Below the pieces are notes generated by a model. It was not told the origin of the DNA. It saw only the letters and a list, made by a program, of their open reading frames with translations, and ran no database searches. A program made the translations under genes and the position numbers. DNA of 64,000 nt, taken from assembly GCF_000026545.1 (NCBI RefSeq), contig NC_011601.1; one strand, given 5' to 3'. Shown here one piece after another: positions 43,068 through 52,835 of this stretch (positions are counted from its first letter, which is position 1; each line of letters opens with the position of its first letter). Origin of the DNA: Escherichia coli O127:H6 str. E2348/69. Its GTDB lineage: Bacteria; Pseudomonadota; Gammaproteobacteria; Enterobacterales; Enterobacteriaceae.

Positions 43068-43825
43068 GATTGTTGCTCTATCCCCCTAAACCACCGGATT
43101 TCTCAACACCGGTCACTCAATGATATCTGTATAAGCTAAGGAGAGGGTTATGGGGGATATTATGCGTCCCATTCCGTTTGAGGAACTTTTGACGCGCATA
43201 TTTGATGAATACCAACAACAACGCTCAATCTTTGGTATTCCCGAGCAACAGTTTTACTCACCCGTAAAAAGTAAAACTGTTAGCGTCTTCGGTGAAACCT
43301 GTGCCACTCCCGTCGGCCCTGCCGCTGGCCCGCACACGCAACTCGCGCAAAATATTGTCACTTCCTGGCTGACTGGCGGACGCTTCATCGAACTAAAAAC
43401 CGTCCAAATTCTTGACCGTCTGGAGCTGGAAAAGCCCTGTATCGATGCCGAAGACGAGTGCTTTAACACCGAATGGTCTACCGAATTTACCCTGCTTAAA
43501 GCCTGGGATGAATACCTCAAAGCCTGGTTTGCCCTGCACCTTCTCGAAGCGATGTTCCAGCCTTCTGATTCCGGTAAATCGTTCATCTTTAATATGAGCG
43601 TCGGTTACAACCTCGAAGGTATTAAGCAACCGCCGATGCAGCAGTTCATCGACAATATGATGGACGCATCTGACCATCCGAAATTCGCTCAATACCGCGA
43701 TGCACTTAATAAGCTACTCCAGGATGAGGCATTTTTAGCCCGCCACGGATTGCAGGAAAAACGCGAAAGCTTGCAAGCCTTACCCGCTCGCATCCCCACC
43801 AGCATGGTACAAGGTGTTACCCTCT

Positions 43826-43834
43826 CCACCATGC
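43826..43834. repeat. 9-bp target-site duplication CCACCATGC flanking IS copy 2 (second copy at 45385-45393)
   Basis: Identical 9-mer immediately outside both IS termini; the duplicated ATG is the ygfK Met codon at the insertion point. Confidence 0.9.
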
Positions 43835-49188: not shown

Positions 49189-49968
49189 ATGATTGAACAA
49201 TTTTTCAGACCCGACTCTGTCGAACAGGCGCTGGAACTGAAGCGCCGCTACCAGGATGAAGCCGTCTGGTTCGCCGGGGGCAGCAAACTCAACGCTACAC
49301 CAACCCGTACCGATAAAAAGATTGCCATTTCCTTGCAGGATCTGGAGCTGGACTGGATTGACTGGGATAACGGTGCACTACGAATTGGCGCAATGTCTCG
49401 CTTGCAGTCACTGCGTGATGCGCGATTTATTCCTGCAGCACTGCGGGAAGCTCTCGGTTTTGTCTACTCTCGCCATATCCGTAATCAGTCGACCATTGGT
49501 GGTGAAATTGCCGCCCGGCAGGAAGAGTCGGTGCTGCTTCCCGTCCTGCTGGCACTGGATGCTGAACTGGTTTTTGGCAACGGCGAAACGCTGTCAATCG
49601 AGGACTACCTGGCCTGCCCATGCGATCGCCTGTTAACCGAAATTATCATTAAAGATCCGTATCGCACCTGTGCGACTCGCAAAATTAGCCGTTCTCAGGC
49701 AGGTTTAACCGTCGTGACGGCAGCCGTTGCAATAACAGACCACGATGGTATACGAATTGCGCTGGATGGCGTCGCCAGTAAAGCACTGCGTCTGCATGAT
49801 GTTGAAACTCAAAATCTGGAAGGCAATGCACTTGAACAGGCTGTCGCCAACGCCATTTTCCCGCAGGAAGATTTGCGGGGCAGCGTGGCCTATAAACGCT
49901 ATATCACGGGAGTTCTGGTAGCCGACCTGTATGCCGACTGCCAACAGGCTGGGGAGGAAGCCGTATGA
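49189..49968 (+). CDS. ygfM: FAD-binding subunit of molybdopterin dehydrogenase (259 aa)
   Basis: Track ORF 259 aa; overlaps start of xdhD. Confidence 0.88.
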   Translation: MIEQFFRPDSVEQALELKRRYQDEAVWFAGGSKLNATPTRTDKKIAISLQDLELDWIDWDNGALRIGAMSRLQSLRDARFIPAALREALGFVYSRHIRNQSTIGGEIAARQEESVLLPVLLALDAELVFGNGETLSIEDYLACPCDRLLTEIIIKDPYRTCATRKISRSQAGLTVVTAAVAITDHDGIRIALDGVASKALRLHDVETQNLEGNALEQAVANAIFPQEDLRGSVAYKRYITGVLVADLYADCQQAGEEAV

Positions 49969-52835
49969 TCATCCACTTTACTTTAAATGGCGCGCCTCAG
50001 GAGCTAACCGTTAATCCAGGCGAAAACGTGCAAAAGCTGTTGTTTAACATGGGAATGCACTCTGTACGCAACAGTGATGATGGTTTTGGGTTTGCCGGTT
50101 CTGACGCAATTATCTTTAACGGTAATATCGTTAACGCGTCCTTGCTTATCGCCGCACAGTTAGAGAAGGCAGATATTCGTACCGCAGAATCTCTGGGCAA
50201 ATGGAACGAGTTAAGTCTGGTTCAACAGGCCATGGTTGATGTTGGCGTGGTGCAGTCTGGTTATAACGATCCAGCTGCGGCTCTGATTATCACCGATCTT
50301 CTCGATCGCATCGACGCACCTACCCGCGAAGAGATCGACGACGCGCTCTCAGGTCTGTTTAGCCGCGATGCTGGCTGGCAGCAATACTATCAGGTCATTG
50401 AACTGGCGGTTGCACGTAAAAATAATCCGCAGGCCACCATTGATATCGCTCCGACTTTCCGTGACGACCTTGAAGTCATTGGCAAGCATTATCCTAAAAC
50501 TGATGCCGCGAAAATGGTGCAGGCAAAACCCTGCTATGTTGAAGACCGCGTAACGGCTGACGCCTGCGTCATTAAAATGTTACGTAGCCCACACGCTCAC
50601 GCACTGATTACTCATCTGGATGTCAGCAAAGCTGAAGCCTTACCGGGCGTCGTTCACGTTATTACTCACCTGAATTGCCCGGATATTTACTATACCCCGG
50701 GTGGTCAGAGCGCACCGGAACCATCACCGCTTGACCGCCGTATGTTCGGCAAGAAAATGCGTCACGTCGGCGATCGCGTTGCTGCGGTAGTAGCCGAAAG
50801 TGAAGACATTGCGCTCGAAGCACTGAAGCTCATCGACGTTGAATATGAAGTGCTTAAGCCGGTAATGTCGATTGACGAGGCAATGGCGGAAGATGCGCCT
50901 GTCGTGCACGATGAACCGGTGGTGTATGTTGCTGGTGCGCCAGATACTCTGGAAGATGATAACAGCCATGCGGCCCAGCGCGGCGAGCATATGATCATCA
51001 ACTTCCCGATCGGTTCTCGCCCACGCAAAAATATCGCTGCCAGTATTCATGGTCATATTGGCGATATGGACAAAGGCTTTGCCGATGCCGATGTGATCAT
51101 TGAGCGAACCTATAACTCAACGCAGGCGCAGCAGTGCCCGACTGAAACACATATCTGCTTTACCCGTATGGACGGCGATCGTCTGGTGATCCACGCCTCC
51201 ACCCAGGTACCATGGCACTTACGCCGCTAGGTCGCGCGCCTCGTGGGCATGAAACAACATAAAGTTCATGTCATTAAAGAACGTGTAGGCGGCGGTTTTG
51301 GCTCTAAACAGGACATCCTGCTGGAAGAAGTGTGCGCCTGGGCAACTTGCGTGACCGGGCGTCCGGTACTTTTCCGCTACACCCGTGAAGAAGAGTTTAT
51401 TGCTAACACCTCTCGTCACGTAGCGAAAGTCACCGTCAAACTGGGCGCGAAAAAAGATGGTCGCCTGACGGCAGTGAAGATGGATTTCCGCGCCAACACG
51501 GGTCCTTACGGTAACCACTCACTCACCGTACCGTGTAACGGACCGGCGCTGTCGCTGCCGTTATATCCATGCGATAACGTCGATTTTCAGGTCACCACCT
51601 ACTACAGCAACATTTGCCCAAATGGTGCTTATCAGGGTTATGGCGCGCCGAAAGGTAACTTCGCTATCACCATGGCGTTAGCGGAACTGGCGGAACAATT
51701 GCAGATCGACCAACTGGAAATTATTGAACGTAATCGTGTACACGAAGGGCAGGAGTTGAAAATTCTCGGTGCGATTGGTGAAGGTAAAGCGCCGACATCC
51801 GTTCCTTCCGCCGCCAGCTGCGCACTGGAAGAGATCCTGCGTCAGGGTCGCGAGATGATCCAATGGTCTTCACCAAAACCGCAAAATGGTGACTGGCACA
51901 TCGGTCGCGGCGTCGCCATTATCATGCAGAAATCGGGTATCCCAGATATCGATCAGGCTAACTGCATGATCAAACTGGAATCAGACGGTACCTTTATCGT
52001 TCATTCTGGCGGTGCGGATATTGGTACTGGTTTGGATACTGTGGTGACGAAACTGGCAGCAGAAGTGCTGCACTGCCCCCCGCAGGACGTGCATGTTATC
52101 TCCGGTGATACCGATCATGCGTTGTTTGATAAAGGCGCATATGCCTCGTCCGGTACTTGCTTCTCGGGTAACGCTGCGCGTTTGGCAGCGGAAAATCTGC
52201 GGGAGAAAATTCTGTTCCACGGTGCGCAAATGTTGGGTGAGCCAGTGGCAGATGTCCAACTAGCAACGCCGGGCGTCGTACGCGGCAAGAAAGGCGAAGT
52301 TAGTTTCGGGGATATTGCCCATAAAGGCGAAACCGGCACAGGCTTTGGTTCACTGGTGGGAACTGGCAGTTATATCACGCCTGATTTCGCCTTCCCGTAT
52401 GGCGCAAACTTTGCTGAAGTTGCCGTCAACACGCGTACGGGTGAAATCCGCCTGGATAAATTCTACGCCTTGCTGGATTGCGGTACACCGGTCAATCCAG
52501 AGTTAGCGTTAGGACAAATCTACGGTGCCACCCTTCGTGCAATCGGCCACAGTATGAGCGAAGAAATCATTTATGACGCCGAAGGTCACCCGTTAACGCG
52601 TGATTTACGCAGTTACGGCGCACCGAAAATTGGTGACATTCCGCGTGATTTCCGCGCTGTGCTGGTGCCGAGCGACGATAAAGTCGGCCCATTCGGGGCG
52701 AAATCGATCTCGGAAATCGGTGTAAATGGCGCCGCTCCGGCGATTGCTACCGCAATTCACGATGCCTGCGGCATCTGGTTACGCGAATGGCATTTCACAC
52801 CGGAGAAAATACTCACCGCGCTGGAAAAAATATAA
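49965..52835 (+). pseudogene. xdhD: xdhD (molybdopterin/Fe-S hydroxylase, about 956 aa) interrupted by in-frame TAG at 51228-51230
   Basis: Track ORFs 49965..51230 (421 aa) and 51243..52835 (530 aa) are in the same frame, separated by one TAG plus four sense codons; combined 956 codons, the length I recall for intact XdhD. Confidence 0.8.

Follow-up and report, generated by a model that had tools for sequence, protein, structure and literature searches.

Why should a single catabolic operon carry two independent inactivating lesions? The question is raised by ygfK-ssnA-ygfM-xdhD in Escherichia coli O127:H6 str. E2348/69, the prototype enteropathogenic E. coli (EPEC) strain, which we analysed within a chromosomal stretch of 64,000 nucleotides (contig NC_011601.1; hereafter the window, on which all unattributed positions are counted). 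The 10-kb region holding the operon matches E2348/69 (NZ_CP059840.2) at 100%. Its first gene, ygfK, is split by an insertion sequence (IS), ISEc13, and its last gene, xdhD, is interrupted by an amber codon. Both lesions are already known from public annotation, since the RefSeq record NZ_CP059840.2 labels xdhD a pseudogene with an ‘internal stop’ and ygfK two pseudogene pieces on either side of an ISEc13 transposase. What is new here is the Dcm-site context and recurrence of the amber, the order of events, with the amber preceding the IS, and the pattern of substitutions in the operon compared with its flanks. The reading that we favour, and hold to be fairly probable, is a stepwise knock-out, in which a natural hotspot amber would have been followed by relaxed constraint, by the insertion of ISEc13 and by a further deletion in some stocks.

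The function of these genes has been established by Li et al. 2025 (PMC12507026), in agreement with the anaerobic urate catabolism that the initial annotation had attributed to them. XdhD-YgfM reduces urate to 2,8-dioxopurine (yanthine), YgfK and SsnA carry out the reductive dearomatisation and the ring opening to ureidomethyl-hydantoin, and HyuA, YgeW, YgeY and YgeX complete the pathway; xdhD and ygfK deletion mutants lose their respective steps (Li et al. 2025, PMC12507026; for a commentary on the functions and deletion phenotypes of these proteins, see PMC12990295). Reductive (anaerobic) uricolysis thus begins with the products of this operon, its upper module, in which steps 1 and 2 are each hit by one of the lesions. 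The YgeV iModulon includes all four genes (PMC12133099), and on the basis of this shared membership they form one co-regulated unit, in which the two independent inactivating events reported initially are indeed found.

The lesion in ygfK is an ISEc13 insertion after codon 228, flanked by a perfect 9-bp duplication, CCACCATGC, of which relatives have one copy at the empty site. When ISEc13 and one copy of the duplication were excised in silico, an open ygfK of 3,099 nt (1,032 codons) was obtained, with zero differences from the ygfK of a sister isolate, L011. The ends of the element share CTGTCTCTT as terminal inverted repeats; the left end is identical over 19/19 positions to what we take to be the IS50 inside end, and the right end agrees at 17/19 with the presumed IS50 outside end. 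The transposase (457 amino acids) is named ‘IS4-like element ISEc13 family transposase’ in RefSeq, and the Pfam search returned Tnp_DNA_bind and DDE_Tnp_1 (weak). E2348/69 harbours approx. 30 copies of the element (30 matching places in the genome). On the sense strand of ygfK, the antisense element carries a terminator-like hairpin followed by TTTTT (44454-44477), the fold of which is unexceptional compared with shuffled sequences. ISEc13 in this orientation probably blocks the transcription of ssnA-ygfM-xdhD as well, as far as can be judged from its sequence.

The lesion in xdhD, first described as an amber codon, is a change of Gln422 from CAG to TAG. The frame of 956 codons is open to 52835 apart from this TAG (51228-51230), and codon 422 reads CAG (Gln) in 2022H047, the closest amber-free relative, as well as in Nissle 1917, MCJCHV-1 and N17. 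The 421-amino-acid N-terminal product comprises Fer2_2, Ald_Xan_dh_C and part of MoCoBD_1, inside which the break falls, whereas the part 3′ of the amber encodes the remainder of MoCoBD_1 and MoCoBD_2, including Glu606, a residue placed in the active site (Li et al. 2025, PMC12507026). Sequencing errors are not the origin of these lesions: three independent complete assemblies contain the amber, and several short-read assemblies, obtained independently and identical to the window, contain both lesions.

Could XdhD still be functional, through read-through, a suppressor, or re-initiation at GTG 51243 or ATG 51249 giving a two-piece enzyme? These two in-frame codons do lie 4 and 6 codons past the stop, and split molybdenum subunits occur in some family members. 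However, neither codon is preceded by a Shine–Dalgarno-like sequence, the break falls within the MoCoBD_1 domain, and the upstream IS probably blocks transcription anyway. Moreover, no amber suppressor was found in the Gln-tRNA cluster, to which the search was limited: its anticodons are TTG, TTG and CTG only, with no CUA. A functional XdhD is thereby extremely improbable.

The origin of the amber is suggested by the base concerned, which is the inner cytosine of a CCAGG site (context ACGCCGC[C>T]AGGTCGC). This cytosine is the base methylated by Dcm, and 5-methylcytosine deaminates to thymine; the classical amber hotspots of lacI are CAG to TAG changes of just this type. Both dcm and vsr are annotated as intact in E2348/69 (CP059840.2 2033959-2035828), and CCWGG is a recognised C to T hotspot, countered by Vsr (PMC13250602; PMC2715241). 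In public assemblies, TAG at codon 422 was retrieved on at least five xdhD haplotypes, mutually differing at 25-84 other positions. Two pairs of sequences are especially telling, as L013 and Nissle 1917 on the one hand, and L010 and MCJCHV-1 on the other, differ by one base in 4 kb, which in both cases is position 51228. Such single-base differences rule out that the amber was spread among these backgrounds by recombination; it therefore arose de novo in them. Its identification as a Dcm hotspot mutation is well grounded in the chemistry of the site and in this five-fold homoplasy, and an amber lying at such a hotspot and found on at least five haplotypes needs no special explanation for its occurrence.

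An enrichment of stops at Dcm codons over non-Dcm codons of xdhD is suggestive. When real stops were counted on distinct haplotypes, the Dcm-context CAG sites scored 5 (Q422) and 3 (Q414, the other in-frame site of this kind in xdhD), compared with 1, 1-2, 0, 0, 0, 0 and 0 for seven non-Dcm CAG codons, the detection effort being unequal between codons. Stops of other types also recur: W417*, at a non-Dcm site, arose about three times, once as TAG and, in two further backgrounds, as TGA (L020, L021, L023; L020 is OZ249094.1, a 4.64-Mb chromosome), and the only real W459* is a TGA, which does not involve a Dcm-type base. Single-base deletions in L025, L027 and L029 were left uncounted, as each of these assemblies contains several such deletions, which may be sequencing errors. 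This haplotype count replaces a test by contig counts on hypothetical truncated XdhD and YgfK products, which was dropped because the xdhD signal (p = 0.0097) came mostly from partial genes at contig ends; in the same test, Dcm-context sites of ygfK did not differ from controls. Many Logan/metagenome contigs (L046-L052, L054-L062, L064-L072, L075-L078) end 0-2 nt from xdhD codons 413/414, 247/248, 458/459 and 541/542, thereby mimicking nonsense truncation, and such partial genes are a trap for any count of pseudogene alleles by exact-sequence look-up in that collection.

Which of the two lesions came first? The exact 81-mer centred on the amber was found in 3 of 5,176 complete genomes, all of them E2348/69 or derivatives, and the left IS junction in one of 5,426 complete E. 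coli genomes; 2022H047, the closest other complete genome (99.8% identical), has both ygfK and xdhD intact. Exact-protein look-ups in a large assembly collection were more informative. The 421-amino-acid fragment of XdhD was detected on at least 38 contigs, and the amber loci retrieved fell into three classes: contigs identical to the window, which correspond to resequencing of E2348/69; L011 (GCA_049977505.1), which over 21 kb differs from the window by 5 single-nucleotide polymorphisms (SNPs) and a deletion of 4 bp and combines the amber with an uninterrupted ygfK; and L007/L009, L010 and L013, 1.2-1.4% divergent from the window, with TAG and an intact ygfK. A look-up with the 528-amino-acid C-terminal fragment of XdhD added L024 and L028, which are 2.3-2.5% divergent. 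Conversely, the contigs encoding the 231-amino-acid product of the ygfK-IS junction all match the window, with a single mismatch in one short contig. The survey of related genomes that had been proposed as a check thus places the amber on several backgrounds and the IS junction in E2348/69 resequencing data only. As L011 carries the amber without the IS, the amber came first; judged from this distribution, it is the older lesion, and the insertion is specific to E2348/69.

These data also bear on a laboratory origin, a possibility raised by the initial annotation; one or both lesions would then have been acquired during more than 50 years of passage of E2348/69. The restriction of the IS junction to resequencing data of this strain is in line with such domestication, as are two laboratory-stock assemblies that lack a further 22.5 kb between IS copies. 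For the amber, however, a laboratory origin is excluded: the mutation is also carried by L011, whose 5 SNPs and one indel relative to E2348/69 over 21 kb are too many for a laboratory derivative, and the private SNPs in these 21 kb, 3 in L011 and 2 in E2348/69, are far above the yield of laboratory passage, so that the amber must have arisen in nature. The insertion is present in all E2348/69 stocks sampled; its right-hand junction was found in all three complete assemblies and the full insertion on short-read contigs identical to the window, and the IS therefore predates the spread of the sampled stocks; it may have inserted either before or shortly after the isolation of the strain. Overall, domestication is a very improbable source of the lesions.

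The 22.5-kb loss itself involves a second ISEc13 copy located upstream in the window (table 1), 100% identical to the first and in the same orientation. LT827011 (‘variety 2’) and LT903847, which derives from it (L003, L004), both show araE, two directly adjacent ISEc13 copies and the 3′ fragment of ygfK in succession, and no 100% match to the xdhABC segment (window 27000-33000) was obtained in either. In the window, the interval between the two copies comprises kduID, yqeFG, tRNA-Gly, actS, xdhABC, ygeV-Y, hyuA, arcC, yqeBC, mocA and the 5′ end of ygfK. LT827011 and LT903847 were built by Illumina de novo and reference-guided assembly (PMC5685641). The deletion between ISEc13 copies is probably real in these two assemblies, although the doubled ISEc13 may have been created by the assembly; for the same reason, the ISEc13-ISEc13 junction was set aside as a candidate for an unusual transposition product. 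Some E2348/69 stocks may consequently lack the entire xdhABC-ygeV-hyuA segment. Both ISEc13 targets in the window (43826-43834, CCACCATGC; 19764-19772, GCCATGCGA) contain CCATGC, which may reflect a target preference of the element.

Do two lesions in one unit imply relaxed selection, as was initially suggested? Taken alone, two hits in one operon are weak evidence, and the additional changes in the clade are more instructive. With 11 other E. coli loci used to polarise the differences, ygfK T258A (45480) and xdhD Q422* map to the common branch of E2348/69 and L011; the branch of E2348/69 then acquired ssnA Y41H (47930 T to C; Tyr in 11/11 other loci), and that of L011 xdhD L745M, 3′ of the amber. 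The operon hence accumulated 3 missense and 1 nonsense changes and 0 synonymous changes in this clade, compared with 3 synonymous and 0 missense changes in the 11.5-kb flanks (Fisher one-sided test for a nonsynonymous excess, p = 0.029). Past constraint on the operon was strong, xdhD differing between lineages at 52 nt but only 2 amino acids.

Other lesions were noticed in the cluster of amber carriers. In L011, a 4-bp deletion (equivalent of window 53266-53269) frameshifts xanQ, which encodes the xanthine permease and lies immediately 3′ of the operon, with a stop at codon 99. In L007/L009 (SRR3578931, SRR5943188), a 1-bp deletion in yqeC (equivalent of 42057), a selenium cofactor biosynthesis gene, leads to a stop at codon 50 alongside the amber. 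The cluster is much more decayed in L028 (GCA_026011135.1), a non-B2 amber carrier in which one deletion joins ygfK (~43608) to ssnA (~48410) and a second joins xdhB (~30707) to hyuA (~37711).

The simplest alternative is pure coincidence, that is, two unrelated hits drawn from a high background of ISEc13 burst and ordinary pseudogenes and carrying no message on selection. Such a background does exist. Beside the approx. 30 copies of ISEc13, 250 kb of RefSeq annotation sampled outside the window contained 2 frameshifted pseudogenes of the backbone and 1 more gene split by an IS, corresponding to approx. 40 point-mutation pseudogenes genome-wide, an estimate with a wide interval. The frameshifted genes are dgcQ (diguanylate cyclase) and yedD, and another diguanylate cyclase gene is split by ISEc13 (diguanylate cyclase pseudogenes at NZ_CP059840.2 1912542-1917417 and 2038259-2039952). 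At a rough estimate, ~0.3 cases combining an IS with a point lesion are expected by coincidence per genome, and the hotspot nature of the amber site further raises its prior probability. On the other hand, coincidence does not readily account for coding changes that are all nonsynonymous in the operon of this clade and synonymous in the flanks, for second lesions in the cluster of other amber carriers, or for lesions falling on consecutive steps of one pathway. We consider it unlikely, while granting it some weight.

Relaxed selection is accordingly retained on the order of the lesions, on the all-nonsynonymous changes and on the second lesions of other carriers, and not on the coincidence of two hits, which is poor evidence. 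The ‘pathway decay’ of the initial annotation applies to this operon but not beyond it: hyuA, ygeW, dpaL/ygeX, ygeY, arcC, xdhABC, yqeBC, mocA, xanQ, guaD, uacT and ygfT/S are all annotated as intact in E2348/69, so that decay is confined to the operon and does not extend to the whole pathway. The upper module is predicted to be dead, and the rest of the cluster is annotated as intact.

Besides this intactness of the other cluster genes, several points weigh against a stepwise knock-out under relaxed constraint. The substitution pattern relies on 7 SNPs in all, and p becomes 0.07 if the xanQ frameshift of L011 is counted as a flank event. With an IS present in ygfK, a point lesion would also fall in the other 5 kb of the operon with a probability of ~0.04 at a rough estimate, a value which, like the ~0.3 coincidences expected genome-wide, leaves room for chance. 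Yanthine has been reported in LB and serum (Li et al. 2025, PMC12507026), and YgfK and SsnA could for this reason keep some value after the loss of xdhD. Both the polarity of the IS and the loss of activity are deduced from sequence, the evidence for the 22.5-kb loss comes from Illumina assemblies guided by a reference, and the first hotspot test, by contig counts, was invalid.

Recurrence of the amber also invites an adaptive interpretation, in which inactivation of XdhD, and then of YgfK, would be favoured in some niches, the repeated alleles reflecting selection in addition to mutation bias. The benefit could be a diversion of urate to salvage via XdhABC, or the avoidance of the cost of the pathway or of an intermediate. 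Consistent with this, Q248*, Q414*, W417* (TAG and TGA), Q422*, W459* and Q542* alleles of xdhD are all found in public assemblies, the amber persists in carriers that have diverged (L007 versus L009, 9 SNPs; E2348/69 versus L011), and deletion of xdhD redirects urate to XdhABC salvage (Li et al. 2025, PMC12507026). Yet no more than 3 of 5,176 complete genomes, all of one strain, carry the amber, and the operon is present in ~95% of E. coli under strong purifying selection, which makes adaptive loss quite improbable. Slightly more doubtful still is the specific proposal that loss of XdhD is recurrently selected, EPEC1 included, with the Dcm sites of codons 422 and 414 as a ready ‘off switch’ sending urate to salvage during gut colonisation or infection.

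A stepwise knock-out, the favoured explanation, would have proceeded as follows. The inner C of the CCAGG site in xdhD changed to T in a natural ancestor, most probably through deamination of 5-methylcytosine escaping Vsr repair, which turned Gln422 from CAG to TAG and left a product devoid of most of the molybdenum-cofactor domain; the same change would recur in unrelated E. coli because of this deamination at this site. Once XdhD was lost, the remaining genes of the operon would have kept little of their selective value in this lineage, and ygfK T258A and ssnA Y41H could then have been tolerated. During the expansion of ISEc13, a copy entered codon 229 of ygfK by cut-and-paste transposition, with a 9-bp duplication, and this antisense copy would probably have stopped the transcription of ssnA-ygfM-xdhD too. 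Finally, some laboratory stocks would probably have lost 22.5 kb between two ISEc13 copies.

Each element of this scenario has a known counterpart. Amber hotspots at Dcm sites of lacI were reportedly described by Coulondre and Miller in 1978 and by Lieb in 1991, and are reviewed in PMC13250602 and PMC2715241. The xdhD mutation resembles them in its CAG to TAG change at the inner C of CCAGG, in an intact dcm/vsr background and in its independent recurrence, but it occurs in natural populations and in a metabolic gene instead of a reporter, and its methylation is deduced from the motif. The insertion is similar to those of IS4-family elements of the IS50/Tn5 type, with ends like the inside and outside ends, a 9-bp duplication, a DDE transposase and a simple in-gene insertion; ISEc13 is nonetheless distinct, with ~30 copies in E2348/69, and its polarity here is a prediction. 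As in the decay of Shigella and host-restricted Salmonella, several lesions affect one pathway, a nonsynonymous excess follows the first hit and IS elements are involved, but in E2348/69 only one operon and a handful of changes are concerned, the lower module and transporters being intact. Lastly, the genes, their order and the YgeV regulon are those of the E. coli reductive uricolysis cluster (Li et al. 2025; Liu 2023 and Kasahara 2023, cited there), from which E2348/69 differs in that the genes for step 1 and step 2 are pseudogenes.

In practice, E2348/69 is predicted to be unable to perform reductive uricolysis, although its lower-module genes and transporters are intact. This is a caveat for work on purine or urate metabolism, on selenium-dependent molybdoenzymes or on gut colonisation with this strain. 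Moreover, ssnA Y41H and ygfK T258A sit in otherwise ‘intact’ parts of the operon, so that correcting the amber and the IS alone might not be enough for function. The locus is also a small, clean natural case in which a nonsense mutation at a Dcm hotspot has arisen repeatedly in different E. coli lineages. The current understanding of the systems involved is unchanged, the finding being an ordinary one and mainly a strain caveat.

Table 1. Coordinates of the operon, its lesions and associated features in the window.
Feature	Position	Strand	Remarks
second ISEc13, identical	19773..21322	-	between kduD and araE; target-site duplication GCCATGCGA at 19764-19772
ygfK 5′ fragment	43150..43834	+	codons 1-228 plus 1 nt; reads into IS end, stops after 231 amino acids
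target-site duplication copy 1, CCACCATGC	43826..43834	.	perfect 9-bp direct repeat
ISEc13 (IS4 family)	43835..45384	-	1,550 bp; transposase open reading frame 43846-45219, minus strand
target-site duplication copy 2, CCACCATGC	45385..45393	.	perfect 9-bp direct repeat
ygfK 3′ fragment	45385..47807	+	805-amino-acid open reading frame from ATG 45390; T258A at 45480
ssnA	47810..49138	+	frame intact; Y41H (47930 T to C)
ssnA-ygfM spacer hairpin	49147..49173	+	perfect 12-bp stem
ygfM (FAD subunit)	49189..49968	+	intact; overlaps xdhD via ATGA
xdhD pseudogene	49965..52835	+	TAG at codon 422
mutated Dcm site	51227..51231	+	CTAGG here, CCAGG in intact alleles; C to T at 51228
terminator-like hairpin 3′ of xdhD	52845..52872	+	GGCCGC-ttcg-GCGGCC then TGTTTCTCTGTTT

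The layout of the operon differs in some details from the ‘single translationally coupled unit’ proposed initially. Junctions are short or overlapping in two of three cases. The stop of ygfK (TAA, 47805-47807) and the start of ssnA (ATG, 47810) are separated by 2 nt and not by the 3 nt first given, with a GGAGG within the end of ygfK, and the overlap of ygfM with xdhD was recovered as ATGA at 49965-49968. The third junction is the 50-nt spacer between ssnA and ygfM, which holds a hairpin and breaks the chain, so that the genes form two coupled pairs (ygfK-ssnA and ygfM-xdhD) and not one continuous coupled chain. The terminator reported after xdhD is supported as terminator-like, by a GC-rich hairpin with a T-rich tail.

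The 12-bp hairpin between ssnA and ygfM (-20.2 kcal/mol, z = -4.2) is not followed by a U tract on the sense strand and scores as terminator-like on the antisense strand only; it could be a processing element, a stability element or an attenuator. An Rfam scan of the operon gave no matches. Upstream of ygfK, a sigma-54 scan returned 2-mismatch matches only (e.g. 43062-43077), from which no promoter is claimed, and sigma-54-like matches over the whole window barely exceed those in shuffled sequence. Elsewhere in the window, the genes of the small RNAs OmrA and OmrB were located on the minus strand at 13403-13490 and 13606-13687, with Rfam scores of 96.6 and 86.1 bits, respectively.

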